Part shown: one piece after another, positions 21,836 to 58,695 of the stretch | Position numbering within the stretch: the stretch's first letter is position 1 | Layout: every line of letters starts with the position of its first letter | From: Bacteroidota bacterium | Lineage (GTDB): Bacteria > Bacteroidota > Ignavibacteria > UBA10030 > UBA6906 | Assembly: GCA_019637975.1 (NCBI GenBank) | Contig: JAHBUR010000008.1 | Location: forward strand, 77,169-141,168 | Direction: 5' to 3' | DNA: 64,000 bases | Position numbers and translations under genes: made by a program | Notes under the pieces: generated by a model | The model's database searches: none | Told to the model about the DNA's origin: nothing | What the model saw: only the letters and a program-made list of their open reading frames with translations

Positions 21836-24415
21836 CTACCACAACGAAAATCCCGCCCACATGTGCGGGGTTGCGTACTCCGCTTTCCCGATCATCTCCA
21901 ACAACGATTTCCTGTACGCATTCTCCGCTGATTCTCCCGCAAGAAGATTCGTGTAGAAGAGTTCATTGAAGAACTTCTTCGCTTTGCGCGGGGGAACGTA
22001 ACTGTTGATCACAATATCCGAAGAGCCGTTCATGATGAAAATGCCCGGCACGGCTGGATGCAAACCTGCATCCGCCAAATTGGAAAACAGCACAATCCGG
22101 AACGGCGCTACCGAGAACATCTCTCCCAACCGGTGGAAATGCGTCGTGCCGTACGCCGCGCCTTCCGACAACACGAAAAACGACAGGCCGGGGCTTTCTG
22201 TCCGGTAGTCAAGTTCGAACGATGCGTGGAGAACATCTCCCTTCTCCTGACGCAAACGGCTGAGTGTAGCCTCCCGGTCGAAGAAGACCCGGGCTTCCTT
22301 GTAGAATGCCTTTACATCACGCACTTCATACTCTGCATCAATCGGCGTTCTCCCCCGATTCCCGAACCCGACAGCGACGGCATACGGGCCAAGCGGTTGT
22401 CGCTGCGTGCCCGCAGCGCCCGCCTCCACCAAATATCGAATCGAGAATCGTCGGAGTGCATACTCTCCGGTGTAGCCCTCGCTTTGCAGCGCGTGAACCG
22501 GAATGATCGGAAGACTGACAGGCATTTCCACAAACACGCTGTTTGCATCGGGTGCGTGAAGAACAATCGGGCGGACAAACACTGCATAGAGCTTCCCGGA
22601 AAGTTCCCGGAGCCGGCGCTCCCGCACGCGCAGATCGCTCTTGTTTGTTTCGGCATTCATCTGCATGAGAACGTCGAGATACTCGTTCATGAGGGAGAGA
22701 AGGGATTCTTTTCCGATGGCAGCTATCTGCTCACTGCTTTTCGATTTTGTATAGATGGAAATATGCAATGACTGCTTCGTCGGAATGTACGTCACGAGGG
22801 CGGCCCCGTCGGGAATCTGCTTCTGCACATCTGCAACGGAGGAATTGCGTGCAGTCAGCGCGGGACGGAGATTGGGGTAGCGGACGGCGAGCGAATCTTC
22901 CAGCTCAGAGGTACGGAGGCGGGCACTCTGCAGGTTGCTCTGTACTTCTGCAGCAAGTGTCCGCGATTCGGCGTGCAGCATGAACGCCTTCGCGAGTTGC
23001 CGCTCGGCCCCTAAACGTGCCGCCCGAACGCGGGCAAGATCTGCCAGTGCAGCGTTCAGCCGCGCATCCTGCGTCCTGATAGTCATTGAGACATAGTCGC
23101 GAAGAAGTCTGCTTTGCCTCTCCCTTTCGGCAGCGGCTGTCGCCTCCTCAGACTTCCCCAATTTGAACAATAGCTCTATCAAGGCATCATACGGCGAACC
23201 CTGGCGCGAGCCGTAGAACGTCGCTTCGCAGTCGTCAAACGCATCGCCGGCACGCGGCACCCACGACGAGTCGAACCGCTTCGCGGCGCTTTGATGGAGC
23301 GCAAGAGCTTCGTTCAGACGACCCTTGCTCTGTGCCAAGTTTCCCAGACATGCTCGCGCGTAAGCGTTTGCCCGCGGCAATCCCATGTAATCGAGCAACG
23401 CTATTGCGGCACTGTAGTTCGTTTCCGCCTCGGCATCTCCACTGGCAGCAAGACAGTGACCGAGCTGAAGCAGAGCATACGCCTCCGTCAGTCTGTTTTG
23501 CGAACCGATTGCGGTCCGAAGCGCGGCATTATAGAACTTGTGTGCTTCTTCGTAACGGTTTCGCCGCAAATGAATATTCCCGACTCGAAGCAACATCTCC
23601 TCTCTCAACGCGTCTGCGCCGCGGATCATATCCGCTCTCCGGATTCCTTCCGTGAACATCTGGAATGACTCCTTCTCGTTTCCCAACAGATCATAGACAA
23701 CTGCGAGAGAAAGGAAAGTCTGAATAGTCAGAAGCGTGTCTTGTGAACGGAGGGCAAAAGGAAGCGCGGCGGCAAAGTTCCTTACGGCGTCACCGTATTC
23801 AGAACGTGAGATGGATGAGTTTCCGTATGCGGAATGCACTTGCGCAAGCATCGCATCATCGCCAATCAGAGAACTCTCGTTCAACAACTCGCCGAGCAAA
23901 CGGCGTTCGAGAGCGAAATCACCGACGGCCCGCGAGACGGGAACCAGCTCCCATTTCATCAACCGGGCGCCCGTTGAATCGCCCAATGCCTCTTCGAAAC
24001 GATGCTGATCCATCAAAACAGAAAACGCCTGCCACTCTTCTCCCCGTACGCGATGCATGCCGGCTTGTCCGAAAATTGCAGCCCGGACACCGGACTTGTC
24101 GCCCGTACGCTGGTACAGATTTCTCGCCTGCGCAAACAACGTTACTGCGTTGTCAAACCCCGCTGCTGCCGAATACGTTTCGCCTAAGAGCAGGGATGTT
24201 TCCGCTTGTCCGGGAACATCGCCCGCCCGTTCATACAATCCCAGCGCTTCCTGAAGCAACCGTTTGCTCTCGGCATGATCGGCGCGGGCCATTGCCTGCT
24301 TTGCTTTTGCAAAGACTTCCTGTGCGCGGAGCGACACGGGGGCGTCATCGCGATTGCATCCCGAAGCAAAAGCAAGAAGGATCAAGATGAATCGATATGC
24401 GCGGAACATTCTCAT
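21836..24415 (-). CDS. TPR-repeat lipoprotein with C-terminal CHAT (caspase-like) domain
   Basis: Lipobox (FASGC). More than 8 TPR-like helical repeats. C-terminal blocks fit CHAT (LPIIPVHAL...RFSIRYL...DVLHASFEL...HMWAGFSLW). The Cys position of the catalytic dyad reads LFSNLADAG. Confidence 0.7.
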   Translation of the reverse strand: MRMFRAYRFILILLAFASGCNRDDAPVSLRAQEVFAKAKQAMARADHAESKRLLQEALGLYERAGDVPGQAETSLLLGETYSAAAGFDNAVTLFAQARNLYQRTGDKSGVRAAIFGQAGMHRVRGEEWQAFSVLMDQHRFEEALGDSTGARLMKWELVPVSRAVGDFALERRLLGELLNESSLIGDDAMLAQVHSAYGNSSISRSEYGDAVRNFAAALPFALRSQDTLLTIQTFLSLAVVYDLLGNEKESFQMFTEGIRRADMIRGADALREEMLLRVGNIHLRRNRYEEAHKFYNAALRTAIGSQNRLTEAYALLQLGHCLAASGDAEAETNYSAAIALLDYMGLPRANAYARACLGNLAQSKGRLNEALALHQSAAKRFDSSWVPRAGDAFDDCEATFYGSRQGSPYDALIELLFKLGKSEEATAAAERERQSRLLRDYVSMTIRTQDARLNAALADLARVRAARLGAERQLAKAFMLHAESRTLAAEVQSNLQSARLRTSELEDSLAVRYPNLRPALTARNSSVADVQKQIPDGAALVTYIPTKQSLHISIYTKSKSSEQIAAIGKESLLSLMNEYLDVLMQMNAETNKSDLRVRERRLRELSGKLYAVFVRPIVLHAPDANSVFVEMPVSLPIIPVHALQSEGYTGEYALRRFSIRYLVEAGAAGTQRQPLGPYAVAVGFGNRGRTPIDAEYEVRDVKAFYKEARVFFDREATLSRLRQEKGDVLHASFELDYRTESPGLSFFVLSEGAAYGTTHFHRLGEMFSVAPFRIVLFSNLADAGLHPAVPGIFIMNGSSDIVINSYVPPRKAKKFFNELFYTNLLAGESAENAYRKSLLEMIGKAEYATPHMWAGFSLW

Positions 24416-31643: not shown

Positions 31644-31738
31644 ATTTGTACGCGTTCTTTCAGGCAGGTCAAGATACAACACACCACGCAGCGCAACAGG
31701 TTGCGGATACGGCACACGCCGCGGCAACCGACGGCAAG

Positions 31739-32581
31739 ATGTCGGTCTCCGAAATGTTTAAGTACTTGTTCGAGCACGTTCAGGATAGCAACCATCTCGA
31801 ACTCCCCTTTCTCGACATTCATCTTCCCCATTGGGCTCCGATTGAAATCGCCGGACTGACACTCGATCTTTCTCCTACAAAACATGTACTGTTCCTCTGG
31901 TTCGGGGCCGCGGCGCTGATTCTTCTGATGGCTCTCGCCGCCCGTGCCAACAAGAAAAACCGCGTGCCGAAGGGTTGGGGAAATGTTGTCGAAGTGTTCG
32001 TGAAATTCATCCGCGACGAGATCGTTATCCCGAACATGGGAATGGCGGGCATCCGCTACATGCCGTACGTTCTCACGACGTTTTTCTTCATTCTTCTGAT
32101 GAACTTGCTGGGCCTTGTACCGTACGGCGCCTCGGCAACCGGAAACATCAGTGTTACCGCAGGTCTCGCGGTTATTGCATTTGTCATGATTCAAGTATCA
32201 GCCATCCGGGCGCAAGGGTTCGGACATTACCTTGCTCACCTGACCGGGGGCGTGCCCGTATTTCTCTGGCCGATCATGATTCCCATCGAGATTCTCGGGC
32301 TGTTCACAAAGCCGTTTGCCCTCTGCATCCGTCTCTTCGCCAACATTACCGGCGGACATCTTGTGATTGTGTCGTTGTTCGGACTCATCTTCCTGTTCAA
32401 CTCGTGGGTCATTGGTGTCACAACGGCAGCCTTCGTCGTCGCCATCAACTTTCTCGAGTTGTTTGTTGCCTTCCTGCAGGCATACGTTTTCACGATGCTG
32501 ACCTGCATTTTCATGGGGCTCGGCATTCAGGCGGGCCACGGCGAGCATCACGGCGAAGCGGCAAACGAACACGGCCATTAA
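31739..32581 (+). CDS. atpB: F0F1 ATP synthase subunit a
   Basis: Conserved Arg-containing helix (LCIRLFANITGGHLV) and the typical 5-6 TM layout. Start at the internal ATG (MSVSEMFKYL); the open frame begins at 31646. Confidence 0.9.
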   Translation: MSVSEMFKYLFEHVQDSNHLELPFLDIHLPHWAPIEIAGLTLDLSPTKHVLFLWFGAAALILLMALAARANKKNRVPKGWGNVVEVFVKFIRDEIVIPNMGMAGIRYMPYVLTTFFFILLMNLLGLVPYGASATGNISVTAGLAVIAFVMIQVSAIRAQGFGHYLAHLTGGVPVFLWPIMIPIEILGLFTKPFALCIRLFANITGGHLVIVSLFGLIFLFNSWVIGVTTAAFVVAINFLELFVAFLQAYVFTMLTCIFMGLGIQAGHGEHHGEAANEHGH

Positions 32582-32640
32582 GAGACTCTATAACTGTACT
32601 AGAACATATTCATTCACTATCTACCATTAGGAGAAACACC

Positions 32641-32868
32641 ATGGAACATCTTGGTTGGGCATATCTTGCAGCGGGCATTGGCGCGGCACTCACGATTATC
32701 GGCGCAGGGCTCGGTATCGGTAAACTTGCTGCAGCAGCAATGGAAGCAAGCGGACGCCAGCCCGAAGCTGCCGGAGCCGTTCGTACATCCATGATTATTG
32801 CAGCAGCCCTCATCGAAGGAGCAACGTTCTTCGCTCTCGTTATTTGCATTCTACTCGCATTGAAGTAG
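32641..32868 (+). CDS. atpE: F0F1 ATP synthase subunit c
   Basis: 75-aa hairpin proteolipid with the ion-binding Glu in LIEGATFFALV. Confidence 0.9.
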   Translation: MEHLGWAYLAAGIGAALTIIGAGLGIGKLAAAAMEASGRQPEAAGAVRTSMIIAAALIEGATFFALVICILLALK

Positions 32869-32890
32869 TCATCCTTAAGAAGGGTTCATC

Positions 32891-33376
32891 ATGTTAGAAA
32901 TCAATCCGGGACTGATCTTCTGGACGATTGTCACGTTTCTTGCCATGTTGTTCATTCTGAGCAAAGTGGCGTGGAAACCGCTGCTTCATGCATTGACATC
33001 GCGTGAAGAACAAATCCGCACAGCATTGCTCGAAGCAGAAGAGGCGCAGGCCGAGGCAAAGAAGCTGCTTGAGGAAAACAGGCGCCAACTTGCACAGGCT
33101 GAGGCACACGCCCAGCAGGCGATGCGTGAGGGTCGCGAGATGGGCGAGCAGTTGAAAACGGAAATCGTGGAGAAGGCGCACGCGAGCGCACGCAACATGA
33201 TCGAGCAGGCGAAGGAGGAAATCCGTCGTGAGAAGGATTCTGCCCTCCAAGAGTTGCGCGGCGAAGTCGCCGATCTGGCAGTGACCGCCGCGGGCAAAAT
33301 CATTGACGCCAATCTTGACGTCAACAAACATCGTCAGCTTGTGGACGGTGTCATCAAAGACATCAGGCCGAGTTAA
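32891..33376 (+). CDS. atpF: F0F1 ATP synthase subunit b
   Basis: Single N-terminal TM followed by a long charged coiled coil (EEAQAEAKKLLEENRRQLAQAEAHAQQ). Confidence 0.85.
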   Translation: MLEINPGLIFWTIVTFLAMLFILSKVAWKPLLHALTSREEQIRTALLEAEEAQAEAKKLLEENRRQLAQAEAHAQQAMREGREMGEQLKTEIVEKAHASARNMIEQAKEEIRREKDSALQELRGEVADLAVTAAGKIIDANLDVNKHRQLVDGVIKDIRPS

Positions 33377-33381
33377 ACACC

Positions 33382-33933
33382 ATGAAGAACACCCGTGTAG
33401 CGCGGCGATACGCCCAAGCGTTGATGATGACGGCAGACTCGCCAAAAGCGATTGATGGAATTGCGGCGGATCTTGAACGCGTCAAGGCTGCGTTCGATGG
33501 ATCGCGTGAACTCCGCCTTTTCATAGATAGCCCCATCGTTTCGGCGGAAAAGAAGCTCGCCATTCTGCGCGAGCTTTTTTCCTCCCGCGTCGGCACTACG
33601 ACGATGTCGTTCATGGATTTGCTGGTTGAGAAGCAGCGTGAAGGATCGTTGTTGGAGATCATCGAGCAATTCAATGTATTGCGCGACGCAAAATACGGCA
33701 TTATCAATGTTGATGTTGCGTCGGCTGTCGGGATTTCCCCCCAGCAGGAAAAACATCTCTCCGAAAAACTTGAACAATACACGAAGAAGAAGGTGCGGGT
33801 TCGATTCTCCCTCGACAAAGCTTTGAGAGGCGGACTTGTTGTCAAGATTGGAGACACGGTTCTGGATTCGAGTATCAAAAGACAATTGGAGTTGATGCGG
33901 GAACAGTTTATTCACGGACATAGTTTGAATTAG
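33382..33933 (+). CDS. atpH: F0F1 ATP synthase subunit delta (OSCP)
   Basis: N-terminus RYAQALMMTA and C-terminal GGLVVKIGDTVLDSSIK, as in OSCP family proteins. Confidence 0.85.
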   Translation: MKNTRVARRYAQALMMTADSPKAIDGIAADLERVKAAFDGSRELRLFIDSPIVSAEKKLAILRELFSSRVGTTTMSFMDLLVEKQREGSLLEIIEQFNVLRDAKYGIINVDVASAVGISPQQEKHLSEKLEQYTKKKVRVRFSLDKALRGGLVVKIGDTVLDSSIKRQLELMREQFIHGHSLN

Positions 33934-33972
33934 AATTTCGAAGTTCACCACAGAATTGCGAAGGCATACATT

Positions 33973-35529
33973 ATGGCAGAAGTAAGACCGGAAGAAGTCT
34001 CGGCAATACTCAGGAAGCAGCTTGCAGGCTTCGAGAAAGAAACTGATGTGTACGAAGTCGGCACCGTGCTGCAAATCGGAGACGGCGTTGCGCGTGTGTA
34101 CGGACTCTCGAAGGCCGTCATGAGCGAGCTTGTCGAGTTTCCACACGGCGTGTTCGGCATGGTGCTGAATCTTGAAGAGGACAATGTTGGCTGTATTCTT
34201 TTCGGCGAAAGCAGCGAAATCAAAGAGGGTGATGTCGTAAAGCGGACCGGTCGTGTCGCTTCGATACCGGTCGGAGAGGGAATGCTTGGACGCGTTATCA
34301 ACTCTCTGGGGCAGCCGATTGACGATCGGGGTCCGATCAAAACAGACAAGTTGATGCATATGGAGCGCAAGGCGCTTGGCGTCATTGACCGCGCCCCCGT
34401 GAAAGAACCGCTGCAAACCGGCGTCAAAGCGGTTGACGGCATGATTCCCATCGGGCGAGGACAGCGTGAGTTGATTATCGGCGACCGGCAAACCGGGAAA
34501 ACCGCGATTGCGATCGACACCATCATAAATCAGAAGTTCACACACACCGAGCAGGCGAAGGAAATCGGCGTCAAGCCGGTGTATTGTATTTATGTGGCAG
34601 TCGGGCAGAAAAGTTCGACGGTTGCGCAGGTGGTCGACAAGCTCGAGCAGGAAGGGGCAATGACATATACGACGGTCATCGCAGCAACAGCTACCGACCC
34701 TGCGCCCATGCAGTTCATCGCTCCGTATTCCGGGGCAACGCTCGGGGAATTCTTTCGCGACAGCGGCCGTCACGCGCTTGTCGTGTATGACGATCTTTCA
34801 AAACAAGCACAGGCATACAGGCAGGTTTCGCTTCTGCTGCGCCGCCCCCCGGGGCGTGAAGCATATCCCGGTGATATCTTCTATCTTCACTCCCGTTTGC
34901 TCGAACGCGCGTCGAAGCTAAACGACTCGCTCGGCGGAGGCAGCTTAACCGCTCTTCCCGTTATCGAAACGCAGGCGGGCGACGTGTCGGCATACATTCC
35001 CACAAACGTCATCTCCATTACCGACGGCCAGATTTATCTCGAGCCGAACATGTTCAATGCGGGTATTCGTCCTGCTATTAATGTCGGTATCTCTGTGTCA
35101 CGCGTCGGTGGCAATGCACAAATCAAAGCCATGAAGAAAGTCGCCGGACGGTTGCGACTTGATCTCGCCCAATATCGCGAGCTTGAAGCGTTTGCCAAGT
35201 TCGGTTCCGATCTCGACAAAGCCACTATGCAACAACTCCGTCGGGGTTCACGTCTTGTCGAACTCCTGAAACAGGGACAATACGTGCCCATGGCCGTTGA
35301 GAAACAAGTTGTCTCCATTTACGCAGGAACGAACGGCTATCTCGACGAGATTCCTCTGGAACACGTTCAGCGCTACGAGAAGGAATTGCTGGAGGTGATG
35401 GAGTTGCGTCATGCCGATCTTCTTGCAGGGATTGCCGAAAAGAAGGATCTGACCGACGACATTGTCGCAAAATTGAAGGCTGTTCTTCAGGAGTTTACAA
35501 ACTCGTTCAAAGTGAGTGTGAAGGTATAA
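33973..35529 (+). CDS. atpA: F0F1 ATP synthase subunit alpha
   Basis: P-loop [15 protein letters not shown] and the alpha-subunit signature [41 protein letters not shown]. Confidence 0.95.
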
Positions 35530-36413
35530 TGGCAACGCTACGCGAGATACGCGGACGCATTGTCGGCGTCAAGAAAACGCAGAAGATCACCAAGGCAATG
35601 AAGATGGTCGCAGCAGCGAAATTCCGGCGCGCCCAGCGCAACGTTGTTCAGGCGCGGCCCTACGCTGCAAAAATGAAACAGTTGCTGAACCACCTTCACA
35701 CAAATCCCGAGGCTTCGTCACACCCGCTCATTCAGCCCCGGAACGTTAATGCGGTGGCATTGGTCATCGTCACGTCCGATCGGGGCTTTTGCGGCGCGTT
35801 CAATTCCAATCTCGTCAAAACCGCCGAGCGGCTCATCAACGCAAACTACAAGGCGCTGCATGAGCAGGGAAAGGTCAGACTCTTCTGCATCGGAAAGAAA
35901 GGGACCGACTATTTCTCCAAACGCGGACATTCCATTGCGGGCAAATACATCGGAGTGTACAGCAATCTTGTGTTCGGCGAAGCAAAAAAAATCGCAAGAG
36001 AGGTAATCGACGGTTACACGAAGGGCGAGTTCGACCGTGTCGATATCATCTGCAACGTCTTCAAATCCGCAGCACAGCAAACAACTGTGACCGAGCAATT
36101 CCTGCCGATTCCCGCGGGCGCGTTTGATGGAGATGGTGCTGATTTCGTTGACTATATCTACGAGCCTTCGGACACCGACATTGTCAATGCGTTGATTCCG
36201 AAACATCTGAACTTCCAGTTGTGGCGTCTGTTGCTCGAAAGCAATGCTGCCGAGGAAGGTGCACGCATGACTGCGATGGAGAACGCAACAACAAACGCGA
36301 ACGAACTGATCAGATATCTGCAACTCTCATACAACAAAGCACGGCAGGCTGCAATTACCAGCGAGTTGTTGGAGATTGTTGGAGGAGCGGAGGCGTTAAA
36401 GAAAGCGGGTTAA
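35529..36413 (+). CDS. atpG: F0F1 ATP synthase subunit gamma
   Basis: N-terminus [36 protein letters not shown] and C-terminal ITSELLEIVGGAEAL. Start overlaps the atpA stop. Confidence 0.9.
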   Translation: MATLREIRGRIVGVKKTQKITKAMKMVAAAKFRRAQRNVVQARPYAAKMKQLLNHLHTNPEASSHPLIQPRNVNAVALVIVTSDRGFCGAFNSNLVKTAERLINANYKALHEQGKVRLFCIGKKGTDYFSKRGHSIAGKYIGVYSNLVFGEAKKIAREVIDGYTKGEFDRVDIICNVFKSAAQQTTVTEQFLPIPAGAFDGDGADFVDYIYEPSDTDIVNALIPKHLNFQLWRLLLESNAAEEGARMTAMENATTNANELIRYLQLSYNKARQAAITSELLEIVGGAEALKKAG

Positions 36414-36498: not shown

Positions 36499-37692
36499 CT
36501 AATCCATAATCCTTCTTAAGAACGCCGGTTTCTCCGGATCATTTTTATCGATCTTCTCGCGATCCTCCGTTGTCGAATCCTGAACCGGCCGGTAGGCAAC
36601 TTGCAGGTCAACCCCCCGCCGGGCAAATGCCGGAGTATCGTAGTTCTTCAGTTCGGTCACACCCGTCGGAATGCGTTCAACCGTTTTGGGTGTTTTCACG
36701 GCGGGGCGAATGCCGGTTCCGACCGTCACCGAGGGGCGGCGGTTGAAACCCGTTGCAATCACCGTCACCATAATATCATCCGTCATCTTCTCATCGACCA
36801 CGGCACCGAGAATAACATTCACATCCTCGCCTGCGGCTCCGTGAATGATCTCCGTTGCTTCCTCGATCTCTGACAGCGACATATCGGGCCCGCCGGTGAT
36901 GTTGACCAGAACGCCTTGTGCGCCGCCGATCGTCACATCCTCAAGCAGCGGACTCGAGATTGCTTCATGGGCGGCGACGGTTGCGCGATTCTCGCCCGAC
37001 GCAACACCCGTGCCCATAACTGCATCGCCCATCTCCTTCATCACTGTTCGAACATCGGCAAAGTCCACGTTAATGAGACCCGGAACGGTAATCACTTCCG
37101 AGATACCGCGGGTTGCGCCGTACAGCACATTATTGGCGACATCGAACGCAACCTGCAACGGGGTTGTTTTCTCCACAACCGACAGCAGCTTCTGGTTCGG
37201 GATGATGATGAGGGTATCGACCTGCTTTTTCAATTCCTCGATTCCCATTTCCGCCTGCGCATTGCGTCGCTTGCCCTCGCAGTTGAACGGACGGGTAACG
37301 ATCCCGACCACCAACGCGCCGACACTTTTGGCAATGTTCGCAACAAGCGGGGCGCCGCCTGTTCCCGTGCCGCCACCCATTCCCGCGGTGACAAACACCA
37401 TGTCGGTGCCGGCAAGCGCGCGCGCGATTTCGTCGCGATCCTCTTCCACTGCGCGGTGACCGACTGTCGGGTCGCCGCCGGCTCCAAGGCCGCGCGTGAG
37501 GTTCTTGCCGATTTGAATCTTGTTCGGCGCGGCATTCCGCTCCAACGCCTGCAAATCCGTGTTGATCGCAAAAAAGTCCACGCCATGCAGACCCTTCGCA
37601 ATCATGCTGTTGATTGCGTTGCCCCCGCCGCCGCCGACACCGACGACGCGAATCTTGGCACCGCGCTCGAAGAAATCATCGAGTTCGATCAC
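36499..37692 (-). CDS. ftsZ: cell division GTPase FtsZ
   Basis: Tubulin signature GVGGGGGNAINSM, T7 loop NVDFADV, C-terminal conserved peptide DIPAFLRR-like (EKPAFLRRIMD). Confidence 0.95.
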   Translation of the reverse strand: MIELDDFFERGAKIRVVGVGGGGGNAINSMIAKGLHGVDFFAINTDLQALERNAAPNKIQIGKNLTRGLGAGGDPTVGHRAVEEDRDEIARALAGTDMVFVTAGMGGGTGTGGAPLVANIAKSVGALVVGIVTRPFNCEGKRRNAQAEMGIEELKKQVDTLIIIPNQKLLSVVEKTTPLQVAFDVANNVLYGATRGISEVITVPGLINVDFADVRTVMKEMGDAVMGTGVASGENRATVAAHEAISSPLLEDVTIGGAQGVLVNITGGPDMSLSEIEEATEIIHGAAGEDVNVILGAVVDEKMTDDIMVTVIATGFNRRPSVTVGTGIRPAVKTPKTVERIPTGVTELKNYDTPAFARRGVDLQVAYRPVQDSTTEDREKIDKNDPEKPAFLRRIMD

Positions 37693-37777: not shown

Positions 37778-39040
37778 TTACAATTCATCAAACCACGACT
37801 TCATCTTCTCAAGAATATTCGTTTTGCCGATGAGAGGCATTTTCAATTTGCTCGCAGACTTCTCGCCCGCGTTGGATGGCGTAGCCGATTCCCTTTCTTG
37901 ATATTTGAGTCCGTGATACACAAGGCCGACGGCCGTTGCGTACACGGGGTTTTCAATTTCTCGAATCAGTCCGCCTGCAAAGCCGGTCGGAATTCCGATC
38001 TTGACGGGCATACCGAGAACTTCCCGCGCCAATTCCGCCGTACCCTTGATGAGCGCGCCGCCGCCTGTCAACACAACTCCCGCCGAGAGATGCTTCGAAT
38101 AGCCGGATCGCTTGATTTCCAGCGCGGCAATCTCGAAAATCTCTTCCATACGCGGTTGGATGATTGTCGCCAGAAGTCGCTTGTCGATCTCAATCGGTTG
38201 CCTGCCGCCGACACCCGGAAGAATGATCGGGTCGTTGTCCAGAACAGCGGGTACGTACGCGAAGCCGTGGTCTTTTTTCAGCTTCTCCGCCTGGTCGCCC
38301 AGAATGCCAAGGCCCTTGCGAATGTCATCCGTCACTTTTCTTCCGGCGATTCCGATCACGGCGGTATGCCGGATGGTTCGCTCTTCGAACACGGCAAGGT
38401 CTGTCGTTCCGCCTCCGACATCGAGCAGTGCAATGCCGACCTCCTTCTCTTCGTCATCGAGCACGGCATAACTGGACGCAAGGGGCTCAAGCACCATGTC
38501 TTCGACTTTCAGGCCTGCCCGCTCCACACACTTGAAGATGTTCTGCGCTGCGCTCACCAGACCGGTAATGATGTGAACATTGGCTTCCATGCGAACACCG
38601 GACATGCCAAGCGGGTCGTACACGCCATCCTGCCCGTCGATGATGAATTCCTGCGGGATGACATGAATGATTTTTCTATCGGATGGCAAAGCCACTCGTT
38701 TGGTATCTTCAATCAGTCGGTCGATGTCCGATTGTGTCACTTCATGCTCAGGGCCGCTGATGCCGATGACTCCGCGGCTCTGGAAGCTCTGAATATGATC
38801 GCCCGCGATACCGACAATTACCGACTTGATGTCGACGCCCGATTGCGAACGTGCTTCATCAACGGCTGTGCTGATGGAGCGGATGGTCTTGTCGATGTGC
38901 GTCACAACTCCCCGCACAATACCGTCCGATTGGGCACGCCCGACGCCGAGAATGTTGATGCGCCCGTGTTCGTCCATACCCGCGACAACGGCACACACTT
39001 TCGTGGTTCCGATATCAAGTCCGACAATAATGTTACCCAT
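37778..39040 (-). CDS. ftsA: cell division protein FtsA
   Basis: Actin-fold motifs (IVGLDIGTTKVCAVV; DVGGGTTDLAVF). Start at the ATG preceded by AAGGAA; the longest ORF reaches 39109. Confidence 0.9.
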   Translation of the reverse strand: MGNIIVGLDIGTTKVCAVVAGMDEHGRINILGVGRAQSDGIVRGVVTHIDKTIRSISTAVDEARSQSGVDIKSVIVGIAGDHIQSFQSRGVIGISGPEHEVTQSDIDRLIEDTKRVALPSDRKIIHVIPQEFIIDGQDGVYDPLGMSGVRMEANVHIITGLVSAAQNIFKCVERAGLKVEDMVLEPLASSYAVLDDEEKEVGIALLDVGGGTTDLAVFEERTIRHTAVIGIAGRKVTDDIRKGLGILGDQAEKLKKDHGFAYVPAVLDNDPIILPGVGGRQPIEIDKRLLATIIQPRMEEIFEIAALEIKRSGYSKHLSAGVVLTGGGALIKGTAELAREVLGMPVKIGIPTGFAGGLIREIENPVYATAVGLVYHGLKYQERESATPSNAGEKSASKLKMPLIGKTNILEKMKSWFDEL

Positions 39041-39053
39041 AGATGTTCCTTTG

Positions 39054-39848
39054 TTAAGAGTGAGCGTCTCCGTTGTCATGGTTCCATCGAACCACGACCT
39101 GATCTTCAAATCGCAAGTCTATGTACAGTAACTCGTGCGCCCCTTGCGACGCTACGACGGATTTCCAGAAGCCGTCGAATTTCACCAGCCTCGTTCCCAC
39201 CTGGGTCCGTCCGAGAACGACCGGTATCCCGAATTCCGACGTGTACAAGACAAAATCACCATTGTTCTTTGCGTTGATCTCTGAAATATTCAGATACAAT
39301 TCCTCGTCAACTTGCCGCGCAACGGAAAGAACATGCAAGGCATCGAGAATACTCTTATTGGTTGACTTTTTGCCCGTGACGATAACGCCTTCGCCTAACG
39401 AGCCCGACAATACAGGAAGATCAAAGATATGCTCTGATCGAATCTGCGGAAGAACGTGGCCCTCTTCATCCAGATAATAGAGCCTGTCAGCCACCAGTGC
39501 GGCAACAGGCGCCCGTTCTTCGATGGTGATGCGGACACGATTGGGGATGTCGCGTAGCACGGCCACCGATTTCACATACGCATGTTTCTTGACGCGCTGT
39601 TCAATCGCGTACAGGTCCAACTCGAACAGCCTTGCATTTTCGGGCACTTTTGCCAGGGCAAGGATATCCTGTTTCGGTACATTGCGATTGCCCTCAACGA
39701 TAACATTATCAACCAAGCGGTCTTCTTTCCAGAGGTTCGCCTGAATTGCGACAGCAGACACCATGATCACCAGAAAGGCCATGAAGAGAAAGCTCCTCTT
39801 ACCGCTTTTTCCTGGGTGTTGTCCTGATATGTTGTCCTGTTCCGTCAT
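39054..39848 (-). CDS. ftsQ: cell division protein FtsQ (POTRA domain)
   Basis: N-terminal TM, POTRA (VDNVIVEGNRNVPKQDILALAKV), beta-domain. Positioned between murB and ftsA. Confidence 0.8.
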   Translation of the reverse strand: MTEQDNISGQHPGKSGKRSFLFMAFLVIMVSAVAIQANLWKEDRLVDNVIVEGNRNVPKQDILALAKVPENARLFELDLYAIEQRVKKHAYVKSVAVLRDIPNRVRITIEERAPVAALVADRLYYLDEEGHVLPQIRSEHIFDLPVLSGSLGEGVIVTGKKSTNKSILDALHVLSVARQVDEELYLNISEINAKNNGDFVLYTSEFGIPVVLGRTQVGTRLVKFDGFWKSVVASQGAHELLYIDLRFEDQVVVRWNHDNGDAHS

Positions 39849-39851
39849 GCG

Positions 39852-40382
39852 TTATGCTACTCGGGCAAGAGTATCACTCTCGAAGCCGACAAACTGCATA
39901 TCCATCTCCTGTCGAACACCGCATTGTTCTTCAATAATCCGGCACGCGTGCACTGCAAGGGCGCGAATATCGGCGGCGGTTGCGTTACCTGTATTTGCGA
40001 CACTGTTTCCGACTATCTCGGCGCCGCCGAGCATCACGCCGTTCAATCCTGCCATGTCGATCAGCGCTTCGGCCGCGCCCGACTCGTTGCTCTTGAAGAT
40101 GCGAACGGTACGTTTCATGGCTTGCGCGTCATCCGGCTTATCGACCAGGATCACTGCACCGCGAAATCCTCTGTCCGACACGATTGTGCCTGCCAACAGG
40201 ACAATGTGAGGGAACGCGTTCTTCGTGAAAAACTTCTGTAACGCATCAACTTCGTCGGCGGATGTTGCATGCAACACGTAGTCGGCGGGGCCGCCGACGC
40301 GCAACGGACAGTAGCGCGCTACCGGCTCGCTGAACGAAATCGTGCCATTATAGAATTGCTGTATGTCGGTCAGCGAGAGCAT
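39852..40382 (-). CDS. murB: MurB-like UDP-N-acetylenolpyruvoylglucosamine reductase remnant, internally shortened (176 aa); possible pseudogene
   Basis: N-terminal FAD-domain block (PLRVGGPADYVLHA...) joins directly to the C-terminal block (IFKSNESGAAEALIDMAGLNGVMLGGAEIV...NTGNATAADI). The central ~120 residues of a normal ~300-aa MurB are absent. Only 540 bp separate ftsQ and murC. Confidence 0.6.
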   Translation of the reverse strand: MLSLTDIQQFYNGTISFSEPVARYCPLRVGGPADYVLHATSADEVDALQKFFTKNAFPHIVLLAGTIVSDRGFRGAVILVDKPDDAQAMKRTVRIFKSNESGAAEALIDMAGLNGVMLGGAEIVGNSVANTGNATAADIRALAVHACRIIEEQCGVRQEMDMQFVGFESDTLARVA

Positions 40383-40388
40383 CTTCTT

Positions 40389-41774
40389 CTACGCCTTCTC
40401 CCCCTTTAGTTTTTTGATGAATTCCTCCCCGTACTTCCAGATGTCGCCCGCACCCATTGTGATGATAATGTCGCCGCTTCGTTTCATCTTCATCAGGAAA
40501 TCGGAAACGTGCTTTTTGTCCGGAACATAGTGGACGTTCTTGTGGCCGAATTCCTTCGCTGTATTCGCAATAAGCTCGCCGGTAATTCCCTGTATCGGTT
40601 CTTCCCGCGCGGGATAAATATCCGTCAGCACGAGAATATCGGCGTTGAAAAACGCCCGGCCAAAGTCTTCGTAGAAATCTCTTGTTCGGGAATACAGATG
40701 CGGTTGAAACACACAAACGACTCTGCGTCTCCATCCCGATTTCACCCCGGCAAGTGTTACGGCAATTTCCGTCGGGTGGTGGGCGTAGTCATCAACCACC
40801 ATGATTCCGTTGATTTCGGCCTTCACTTCCCATCGACGGAAAACGCCAGTAAATTTTTCGATGCCGGCTTTGACTTGCGCAAAAGGAATCTGCAATTCAA
40901 GTCCGACAGCAATGGCTGCAAGCGCGTTCTGTACGTTGTGCTTGCCGGGGATTTGCAGCGTGATTTCGCCAAGTTCCTTTCCCTCACGAATAACAATGAA
41001 CGTGGTTGCATTCTCCTTGTGCCGGACATCTACCGCCTGAAGGTCGGCCTGACCGTTCAAACCGTAGGTGATGATTTTCTTCTTGATCTTCGGCATGATC
41101 TCCTGCAATGCAGGCTCATCAAGACAGAGAACCACGAATCCATAGAACGGAACTTTCGACGCGAATTGTATGAATGCCGATTTGATATCCTCAAGATCAC
41201 GGTAGCAATCAAGATGATCGGTTTCCAGCGTCGTCAGCACGGCAATGGTCGGCGTGATCGACAGAAACGATCTGTCGAACTCATCCGCCTCGACAACGAT
41301 GAACTCGCCTTTGCCGAGCCGTGCGTTAGAGCCGGCAAGTCCGTGCAACCGCCCTCCGACAATCACCGTCGGGTCGATGCCGCCCTCCATTAATACAAGG
41401 CTTACCATCGAGGTTGTCGTCGTCTTGCCGTGTGTTCCGGCAATGCCGATGCCGTATTTTAAGCGCATGACTTCGGCAAGCATTTCGGCCCGACGAATAA
41501 CCGGGAGTTTGCGCCGCTGCGCCTCGATAATCTCCGGATTGTCCGGAGTGAGTGCGGAAGAATAGACAAGCGCATCTACATCCGCCTCAAGATGTTTTGC
41601 ATCGTGGCCGATGTATACCTTCGCGCCCAGCGAAACAATACGCTCGGTGTTGTCGCTTTCAGCTTTATCCGAGCCGGTAATCGCGAACCCTTGGTCGATG
41701 AGGATTTCCGCTATACCGCTCATGCCGATGCCGCCGATGCCGACAAAGTGAAGTTTTCTTATTGATCGAAACAC
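40389..41774 (-). CDS. murC: UDP-N-acetylmuramate--L-alanine ligase
   Basis: HFVGIGGIGMSGIAEIL N-terminal Rossmann motif. Mur ligase P-loop GTHGKTTTTSM. Confidence 0.95.
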   Translation of the reverse strand: MFRSIRKLHFVGIGGIGMSGIAEILIDQGFAITGSDKAESDNTERIVSLGAKVYIGHDAKHLEADVDALVYSSALTPDNPEIIEAQRRKLPVIRRAEMLAEVMRLKYGIGIAGTHGKTTTTSMVSLVLMEGGIDPTVIVGGRLHGLAGSNARLGKGEFIVVEADEFDRSFLSITPTIAVLTTLETDHLDCYRDLEDIKSAFIQFASKVPFYGFVVLCLDEPALQEIMPKIKKKIITYGLNGQADLQAVDVRHKENATTFIVIREGKELGEITLQIPGKHNVQNALAAIAVGLELQIPFAQVKAGIEKFTGVFRRWEVKAEINGIMVVDDYAHHPTEIAVTLAGVKSGWRRRVVCVFQPHLYSRTRDFYEDFGRAFFNADILVLTDIYPAREEPIQGITGELIANTAKEFGHKNVHYVPDKKHVSDFLMKMKRSGDIIITMGAGDIWKYGEEFIKKLKGEKA

Positions 41775-41782
41775 AGTTTCTG

Positions 41783-42292
41783 TTACCTGTCAGTAAATCG
41801 TGGTTTGCTCCAGCGCGGGCGTTTGCGCTTCGGAACGTGTTGCGCGATTCTGTCCATTTCGTGAATCAGTTCTTTTTCCTTCTCATACCTGCCGATTCGG
41901 ATTCGGATTGCCCTGCGCCTTCCCTTCAGTTTGATGAGAACGACTTGAAATCTGCCGCTGGTCTGCACGAATCGCTCACGGCCGATGTGCATCCATTCAA
42001 TCTCCTTTATGTGAAGAGCACGCTCATGAAAACGGTTCTTGAACGTAATGGTGTCCTCGGCAATAATCAGACGCCGATTACGAATGTAATTCAGTATGAG
42101 CGACCCGAACGACATCAGCACGAAAAAGATGATGATGTAGAGAATCGGATCGTTCATCACATACCGGAACTCCTTCTCGACAAACGAACCGCGTATGCCG
42201 CCGTATGCTACAAGTGTCAGAAGATAGATCAGCGCCGACACATAGTAGAAATCGAGTTTGTATCTGAACACCTTATCGTGGTGTGCTTCCAT
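41783..42292 (-). CDS. hypothetical 2-TM membrane protein (possible bacterial PH-like domain) inserted in the dcw cluster
   Basis: Intact 169-aa ORF between murG and murC. Two N-terminal TM helices, then a basic soluble domain. Overlaps the murG stop by 20 nt. Confidence 0.5.
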   Translation of the reverse strand: MEAHHDKVFRYKLDFYYVSALIYLLTLVAYGGIRGSFVEKEFRYVMNDPILYIIIFFVLMSFGSLILNYIRNRRLIIAEDTITFKNRFHERALHIKEIEWMHIGRERFVQTSGRFQVVLIKLKGRRRAIRIRIGRYEKEKELIHEMDRIAQHVPKRKRPRWSKPRFTDR

Positions 42293-57774: not shown

Positions 57775-58695
57775 CTATTCTCGTCCTATCGCGACACGGA
57801 CGAAACCATTCGCTTGTTGAAGACACGCTTGTGCTTCGCTACGGGTCATTTTGTTCGCAATCATGACAACGGCTGTCTTCACCTGCCCTCCGGCCTTCTC
57901 CAAATAGGATGAAGCAACCTCGTAGTCCACTTCCGTGATCATCATGATGATGCGCTTTGCCCGTTCTACCAGCTTGTTGTTCGTGAGCTGGAGATCAACC
58001 ATCATGTTCTCGTAAACCTTCCCGAGTTTAATCATCGACGCTGTTGTCAGCATATTGAGCACAAGTTTCTGTGCAGTCCCCGACTTCATCCGGGTTGAAC
58101 CCATCAGTACTTCAGGTCCGACCTCGGGACAAATTGCGATATCAACATCAAGATCGAACGATGCCCGGGGATTCGTTGTGATGTAGATTGTCTTTGCGCC
58201 AAGTTCCCTCGCGCGTCCGACTGCCGCTACAACGTACGGTGTTCTTCTGCTTGCGGCAATTCCGCACACAACGTCGTGCGGTGTTACGTTCGCGGTGTCG
58301 ATATCGCGAATACCACGTTCCTTGTTATCTTCTGCCCCTTCCTGTGATCTGATCATTGCCGGGTTTCCGCCTGCAATGTGTCCGCTGACCATTCCCGGCG
58401 GTGTTCCGAATGTTGGAGGACATTCCGAGGCATCGATCACTCCTAAGCGACCGCTAGTTCCCGCACCAAAGTAAAGAAGGCGACCATCATTACGGAAACT
58501 CTCCACGACAATCTCAACGGCTCGCGTGATGTAAGGAATTTCTTTCTCGACTGCCAACGCAACAAGTTTGTCCTCGCTGTTGATAAGCCTGAGAATCGAG
58601 TCCGTTGAGAGCAGGTCGATGTACTGCGAACGAGAATTTCGCTGCTCCGTGAGCAAGCCGGCAAAGTCCTCGAGGGTATGATCGGTCGGGGTCAT
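57775..58695 (-). CDS. murQ: N-acetylmuramic acid 6-phosphate etherase
   Basis: SIS domain and MurQ motifs (GRLLYFGAGTSGRLGVIDASECPPTFG; LTGSTRMKSGTAQK). Confidence 0.85.
   Translation of the reverse strand: MTPTDHTLEDFAGLLTEQRNSRSQYIDLLSTDSILRLINSEDKLVALAVEKEIPYITRAVEIVVESFRNDGRLLYFGAGTSGRLGVIDASECPPTFGTPPGMVSGHIAGGNPAMIRSQEGAEDNKERGIRDIDTANVTPHDVVCGIAASRRTPYVVAAVGRARELGAKTIYITTNPRASFDLDVDIAICPEVGPEVLMGSTRMKSGTAQKLVLNMLTTASMIKLGKVYENMMVDLQLTNNKLVERAKRIIMMITEVDYEVASSYLEKAGGQVKTAVVMIANKMTRSEAQACLQQANGFVRVAIGRE

Follow-up and report, generated by a model that had tools for sequence, protein, structure and literature searches.

In peptidoglycan synthesis, the MurB step is treated as universal and essential, and MurB as a target for antibiotics. 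The dcw cluster described here raises the question of what its MurB still does, and of how MurC, the next enzyme, obtains its substrate. In the window (the whole stretch of 64,000 nucleotides of DNA that was analysed), the place between murC and ftsQ is held by an ORF of only 176 amino acids (AA), which we call mini-murB:

39852..40382, minus strand: mini-MurB ORF (ATG start, 176 AA plus stop), a domain-2-less and, on our reading, catalytically dead MurB homologue
40389..41774, minus strand: murC, the upstream neighbour (UDP-MurNAc--L-Ala ligase; TIGR01082 542 bits, cut-off 335), which needs UDP-MurNAc as its substrate
39054..39848, minus strand: ftsQ, the downstream neighbour (POTRA_1 and FtsQ_DivIB_C domains in orthologues)

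A preliminary description had pointed to this MurB-like ORF between ftsQ and murC, and we found the ORF, its ATG, the spacing and the quoted motifs all to be present. The packing is tight, with the mini-murB start 6 nt past the murC stop and the ftsQ ATG 3 nt past the mini-murB stop. The protein is identical to MBX2990750.1 and MCW5894618.1, which come from two NCBI assemblies and are both named 'hypothetical protein'. The GC and GC3 of the gene are those of its neighbours, and we rejected a horizontal origin on this ground. In the window, the murC TAG and the mini-murB ATG (40380-40391, minus strand) stand in one frame with two codons between them (TAG AAG AAG ATG), and the TAG stop separates what would otherwise be a single MurC-MurB ORF. 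This layout is in frame in the window and at locus L003 and out of frame at L001 and L006; because it is not conserved, we reject stop-codon read-through into a conserved MurC-miniMurB fusion, and the in-frame arrangement is probably incidental. Further downstream, a mechanically called ftsA ORF (37778-39109, minus strand, TTG start) overlaps ftsQ (39054-39848, minus strand) by 56 nt; since ftsA orthologues are called at 410-425 AA, the true start is probably an internal ATG (MGNIIVGLDIG…), with no overlap.

The protein divides into two MurB domains, the short stretch that joins them and a tail:

40134..40382, minus strand: MurB domain 1 (AA 1-83), retaining VGGPADY and VSDxGFRGA, with an AlphaFold2 (AF2) pLDDT of about 90
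40107..40133, minus strand: junction (AA 84-92), variable in sequence, standing in for all of domain 2 (~135 AA in canonical MurB)
39882..40106, minus strand: C-terminal part of MurB domain 3 (AA 93-167), Pfam MurB_C positions 26-99
39855..39881, minus strand: C-terminal tail (AA 168-176), ending ...LARVA, conserved across the short family, with low model confidence

Mapping with HMMs placed the missing segment clearly: MurB_C was the only Pfam match (E 4e-9, covering positions 26-99 of the 99 in the profile), and FAD_binding_4 (PF01565) gave no match even at E<=10. The curated NCBIfam equivalogs for the MurB reductase (EC 1.3.1.98; TIGR00179 / PRK13905) fell far short of their cut-offs (best NF010480, 74.3 bits vs. 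259; TIGR00179, 34.9 vs. 144.5). A phmmer search of the PDB returned MurB without exception, aligning AA 10-87 with S. aureus MurB 26-105 (domain 1) and AA 95-167 with 245-320 (domain 3), and tblastn with three full-length MurBs gave two abutting HSPs (40104-40340 and 39885-40100) and no other MurB-like stretch in any frame of the 64 kb; the earlier remark that there is no room for a hidden exon is right. Some 135 alignment columns are missing, which is domain 2 in its entirety; the central internal deletion first described is thus real, and its estimate of ~120 residues was slightly low. The slot itself is that of murB, since a canonical 304-AA MurB (P0262, of a family named by its sources UDP-N-acetylmuramate dehydrogenase of Ignavibacteria, Ignavibacteriales or Bacteroidota) lies in the same order of murG, a 173-AA ORF, murC, murB and ftsQ, making mini-murB the positional orthologue of murB. 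With homology to both domain 1 and MurB_C and a MurB-like fold, mini-MurB is descended from MurB.

AF2, given an 11-sequence alignment, modelled mini-MurB with a pLDDT of 86.5 and a pTM of 0.81, with confidence low solely at the junction (residues 84-89, pLDDT <50) and in the last seven residues. The top 18 Foldseek matches of this model in the PDB were all MurB (4pyt, 3tx1 and 1hsk first; TM-score 0.72-0.73 by query length), in alignments of ~290 columns that bridge the absent domain. The protein is therefore predicted to be a compact unit of domains 1 and 3, alike over these two domains to canonical type II MurB (PF01565 + PF02873; S. aureus 1HSK, Listeria 3TX1 and 4PYT). It also shares its dcw position, an N-terminal M(V/I/L)S(L/I)xD(I/L) and a C-terminal …xVA tail with the ~305-AA MurB of Ignavibacteria. 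What sets it apart from canonical MurB is the lack of domain 2, of the FAD loops, of the catalytic Arg and Ser and of the contacts to the substrate diphosphate, together with the trimming of two more active-site loops.

To follow these losses residue by residue, we used a map anchored on E. coli MurB and checked against 1mbb_A (342/342 identical); E. coli Arg159, Ser229 and Glu325 are equivalent to S. aureus Arg188, Ser238 and Glu308, the 1hsk numbering being read off the printed alignment. Canonical Ignavibacteria MurBs retain G47-x-G49-S/T50-N51, P111-G112…G115-G116, N121-A-G-A-x-G126, Y158-R159-x-S161, G228-S229, K232-N233, the S-E-K-H loop (285-288), E323 and E325. In mini-MurB, the flavin loops GxGSN, GxPGxxGG and NAGAxG are all deleted or replaced: the flavin-pyrophosphate loop GxGSN of domain 1 is swapped for LLAGT, which is 2 AA shorter (in the short proteins at large, this site holds a 2-AA gap and unrelated residues), and all of the short proteins lack the segment with the flavin loops, Arg159 and Lys217. 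Among the three catalytic residues, Arg159 is thus deleted, Ser229 is replaced by Arg94 (R, Q, T, S, P, K or E across the short proteins) and Glu325 by Asp161 (usually D or E); the loss of the catalytic Ser and Arg had been claimed before, and the map confirms it. To go by the title of a 1997 study by Benson et al., Ser229 reportedly acts as the general acid in MurB. The contacts to the substrate diphosphate, Lys217, Asn233 and residue 288, are likewise gone, with position 233 being S, T or P (Ser98 in the window protein) and the 285-288 (S-x-K-H) loop carrying a 3-AA deletion in the 174-177-AA proteins, that of the window included. PMC12844806 reviews how Arg159, Glu325, Tyr190, Lys217, Asn233 and residue 288 take part in substrate binding.

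With the FAD loops, Arg159, Lys217, Ser229, Asn233 and the 288 loop all lost by deletion or substitution, FAD binding and the reduction of UDP-GlcNAc-enolpyruvate by this protein are, judged from its sequence, not credible. The minimal reductase that the preliminary description had entertained might use flavin that is free or bound in another way, or it might be one part of a split enzyme whose domain 2 sits on another polypeptide. Mini-MurB is the sole MurB-like gene in a cluster whose MurC requires UDP-MurNAc, it mostly retains an acidic residue at the Glu325 position, and it keeps the F-K/R of the GS.FKNP motif, all of which would suit such an enzyme. Against it stand the absence of every flavin-contacting loop and of Arg159 and Lys217, the variability of the Ser229 position, the loss of Asn233 and the deletion of the 288 loop. 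Moreover, the same motifs have decayed within an intact domain 2 in full-length relatives (see below), and this speaks against an active domain 2 encoded by a gene of its own, and tblastn detected no domain-2-like sequence in the window. We regard an active reductase as very unlikely. VGGPADY and GFRGA are invariant in the short family, and as both are conserved in active MurB too, residual nucleotide binding by domain 1 is possible.

Whether the short form is an artefact can be judged from its recurrence. The window lies on a single MAG contig, and the gene has lost an internal segment without a shift of frame, so that an assembly collapse or local misassembly taking ~400 bp from a normal murB, as suggested at first, might come to mind. 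However, the identical protein occurs in two NCBI assemblies, the length is fixed at 174-177 AA, and the short form recurs, with its gene order and at 41-81% identity, in independent assemblies of other samples (NCBI, ENA and Logan); we give misassembly practically no credence. A word-indexed search found eight clusters of 174-177-AA homologues (41-100% identity to the window protein), after which the next matches were ordinary MurBs of ~300 AA, and a HMMER profile search that covered 1.84 billion representatives exhaustively brought in more short forms, at 174-180 AA, as well as a 200-AA one. In a scan of 185,579 species-representative genomes the short form was present in five, labelled Ignavibacteria, Ignavibacteriales, 'Chlorobi' CHB1 and 'Chitinophagales'. 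The loci of P0004, P0005 and P0007 all read murG, a 169-AA ORF, murC, short murB, ftsQ, ftsA and ftsZ, with the ATP synthase operon next on the opposite strand, and the comparison among relatives yielded the 174-177-AA form in this order. In the window, the F-type ATP synthase operon (31646-36413, plus strand) converges on ftsZ (36499-37692, minus strand), where the dcw cluster ends. The mini-MurB lineages L001, L003, L004 and L007 retain this junction, the canonical L055 and the dead-MurB L056 do not have it, and it may prove useful as a synteny marker of the mini-MurB clade.

The gene is also under selection. We estimated dN/dS by the Nei-Gojobori method for unsaturated pairs, with 95% bootstrap confidence intervals (CI). 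For the window against L008 (dS 0.52), mini-murB gave 0.22 (95% bootstrap CI 0.14-0.34), three further unsaturated pairs gave 0.14-0.17 (bootstrap upper limits 0.22-0.27), no bootstrap replicate exceeded 0.5, and both domains were constrained (dN/dS well below 1 in each). The neighbouring genes in the same comparison ranged from 0.02 to 0.12 (murC 0.034, mraY 0.026, ftsW 0.057), making mini-murB the highest in the cluster; its constraint is relaxed relative to its neighbours, yet it is clearly under purifying selection.

These values bear on two explanations in which the protein itself would not matter. One is that mini-murB is a recently decayed, functionless pseudogene remnant heading for loss, in keeping with the disappearance of the catalytic residues and of an entire domain, with the highest dN/dS of the operon and with the NCBI name 'hypothetical protein'. 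What is seen is neither a broken frame, nor dN/dS near 1, nor patchy retention: the ORF is intact at every locus and in all lineages seen, even at 41% identity, dN/dS stays at 0.14-0.22 and no replicate lies above 0.5, 37 positions are invariant among 8 short sequences, and the fold is predicted with confidence. We consider a pseudogene highly improbable, and of the decayed murB proposed at the outset, the decay of catalysis stands, whereas the gene is not decaying, being part of a conserved family under purifying selection with full-length dead relatives, two of which were examined in the same dcw slot. The other explanation is that the ORF is retained only as a translated spacer, setting FtsQ levels through translational coupling or mRNA stability, with the protein irrelevant. 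The spacing of 6 nt from the murC stop and 3 nt to the ftsQ start is what such a spacer would show, and there is a B. subtilis precedent: a 2006 study by Real and Henriques reportedly, by its title, found the location of murB within the dcw cluster to matter for growth and sporulation, an effect reportedly linked to DivIB levels. A pure spacer is nonetheless unlikely because selection acts on the AA sequence, as seen in the dN/dS well below 1 in both domains and the invariant motifs; the conserved length and the confident fold also speak against it, and we think it improbable, if a little less so than an active reductase.

Mini-MurB is homologous to an enzyme, has lost the catalytic and cofactor residues of that enzyme and is under purifying selection, as expected of a pseudoenzyme. 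The best reading is that it is a conserved and previously undescribed pseudoenzyme derivative of MurB. Our literature search found no account of a MurB family that is truncated or has lost catalysis, and nothing relevant on MurB in Ignavibacteria or Kapabacteria or on Mur pseudoenzymes.

The relatives of the short family indicate how such a protein may have arisen. The full-length proteins that best match the profile of the short family have its N-terminal signature and C-terminal tail, and in some 20 full-length representatives close to that family most of GxGSN, NAGAxG, YR.S and GS.F are missing. In P0027, P0030, P0031 and P0032, position 229 is R, W, A and V, respectively, and GxGSN, NAGAxG or YR.S is degenerate in each. 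The full-length dead MurBs P0027, P0030, P0031, P0035 and P0300 fall into one neighbour-joining (NJ) clade with the short forms (weak support) and have lost the catalytic and FAD motifs as mini-MurB has; they differ in that their domain 2 is of normal length (296-329 AA in total), whereas it is excised in the window protein. Both of the loci examined, those of P0300 and P0030, hold the dead form in the same dcw slot (L056, 10001-10915, and L057, 7337-8269, are the positions of full-length dead MurBs).

In the NJ tree, built on shared columns with bootstrap, the dead and short forms nest together, on longer branches, inside the canonical Ignavibacteria MurBs (bootstrap 62% for the 174-177-AA core clade and 33% for the dead and mini forms with P0292). 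P0026 (180 AA) and P0050 (200 AA) lie outside the core clade, and all short forms together are monophyletic in 1%. P0050 has retained the spacing of GxGxN, some 20 residues from the beginning of domain 3 and the loop at 285-288, and P0026 combines the 2-AA gap with a retained 285-288 loop; the deletion boundaries of the two differ, and each groups with different full-length dead forms (NJ, weak bootstrap). These patterns hint, on weak support, that domain 2 may have been lost stepwise or repeatedly and independently. As the closest relatives include full-length MurBs already without the catalytic and FAD motifs, inactivation probably came before the domain deletion, an order for which NJ support is weak. 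The dcw-encoded MurB of one branch would have lost its FAD-binding and catalytic motifs while still of full length; the whole of domain 2, by then useless, would have been excised; and two active-site loops would then have been trimmed, leaving a compact protein of 174-177 AA in which domain 1 is followed by the C-terminal part of domain 3 and then by the tail of the family.

We consider it likely that the whole explanation is a pseudoenzyme that arose from the dcw murB, lost catalysis and was retained for another role. Such a role follows from purifying selection and co-expression with murC and ftsQ despite catalytic loss: mini-MurB would do something non-enzymatic. Domain 1, domain 3 and the tail have been selected after the loss of catalysis, and the …xVA tail also occurs in active MurBs, from which we infer that the MurB of this lineage has a second, non-catalytic role, the sole one that mini-MurB has retained. 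The …LAxVA tail was rejected as a new functional motif, …xVA being frequent in canonical Ignavibacteria MurB.

As for what the role might be, mini-MurB may act as a binding partner or scaffold in the assembly of cytoplasmic peptidoglycan precursors or of the divisome. A partner in precursor synthesis or the divisome, with MurC as the first candidate, is suggested by the tight embedding between murC and ftsQ and by natural MurC-MurB fusions, which appear among the matches of our profile search of representatives at ~750 AA and are known as fusion proteins (PMC10214165). In the chimeras of Verrucomicrobia (PMC10214165) the MurB part is a complete enzyme; here murC and murB are likewise adjacent and their products presumably associate physically, but the ORFs are separate and the in-frame layout is not conserved. 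A non-catalytic binding or scaffold role is the likeliest that we can name, and it is a guess that we hold tentatively, with more doubt than belief.

If mini-MurB is inactive, as we infer, the cluster still has to be supplied. MurC, MurD, MurE, MurF, MraY, MurG, FtsW and FtsI are all encoded in it (Pfam, orthologous loci), and all seven genes tested (murC, murD, mraY, murG, ftsW, ftsA and ftsZ) are strongly constrained, so that peptidoglycan is evidently made. As MurC needs UDP-MurNAc, this must come from a gene outside the window, whether a second murB, MurNAc salvage or an unrelated reductase. With the three full-length MurBs as tblastn queries, no second MurB-like stretch was found in any frame of the 64-kb window; the 10 kb beyond the window start hold cbb3 oxidase genes and no second murB; and among the best 120 of 7,966 matches to the canonical Ignavibacteria MurB P0029, none was tied to a mini-MurB genome. 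A canonical murB paralogue elsewhere in the genome is the most likely of the three sources.

Salvage has a possible precedent in Tannerella forsythia, which makes peptidoglycan without MurB catalysis and is Bacteroidota-related; it lacks MurA and MurB and relies on exogenous MurNAc (PMC7670621, PMC5790795). The window has a murQ (N-acetylmuramic acid 6-phosphate etherase; 57775-58695, minus strand, between mfd and rsmG; TIGR00274 380.6 bits, cut-off 302), a sign of MurNAc-6-P metabolism beside the dead dcw murB that is relevant to salvage. As murQ is widespread, it does not discriminate among the sources of UDP-MurNAc. Tannerella is not known to have a MurB remnant. A further possibility, which we regard as rather doubtful, is that no functional MurB exists genome-wide across the dead and mini branch, with scavenged MurNAc (AmgK/MurU-type) or an undescribed, non-homologous enolpyruvyl reductase in its place and mini-MurB as a structural subunit of a Mur complex.

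The ORF between murG and murC was considered as a replacement for MurB and rejected, because it adjoins canonical murB too. It is part of the conserved operon context of canonical, dead and mini-MurB lineages alike:

41783..42292, minus strand: 169-AA ORF between murG and murC
Counterparts: L001 8092-8601; L003 5194-5703; L055 3994-4515; L056 8091-8606; L057 5365-5871

An ORF of 168-173 AA fills the murG-murC gap in every Ignavibacteria-type dcw cluster examined, and has no Pfam or NCBIfam match. Between the window and L008 it is 94% identical with a dN/dS of 0.043 and is very strongly constrained; visual inspection shows two hydrophobic segments towards its N-terminus and a C-terminus that is basic, and it looks like an uncharacterised, lineage-specific dcw gene. 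Elsewhere in the window, an 859-AA protein with TPR and CHAT domains (21836-24415, minus strand) is apparently unrelated to mini-MurB; the CHAT domain belongs to a caspase-like protease family often tied to signalling or defence.

In the dcw cluster of this lineage, then, the sole MurB would be dead and domain-deleted, with the other peptidoglycan genes there intact. Annotation may mislead here, since the full-length dead forms carry both PF01565 and PF02873 and a MurB label (JGI names P0030 and P0035 'UDP-N-acetylmuramate dehydrogenase') and the mini form is called 'hypothetical'; domain-based annotation may thus overstate or miss pathway completeness in genomes with dead or mini-MurB. UDP-MurNAc would be supplied by a paralogue, by salvage or by a new enzyme, which is checkable directly on genomes, and MurNAc scavenging, if true, would be a free-living counterpart of the Tannerella auxotrophy. 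That the Mur enzymes work as a complex is a long-standing idea, and it is on this idea that our reading bears: MurB would have a non-catalytic role that is separable from its chemistry and selectable in its own right.
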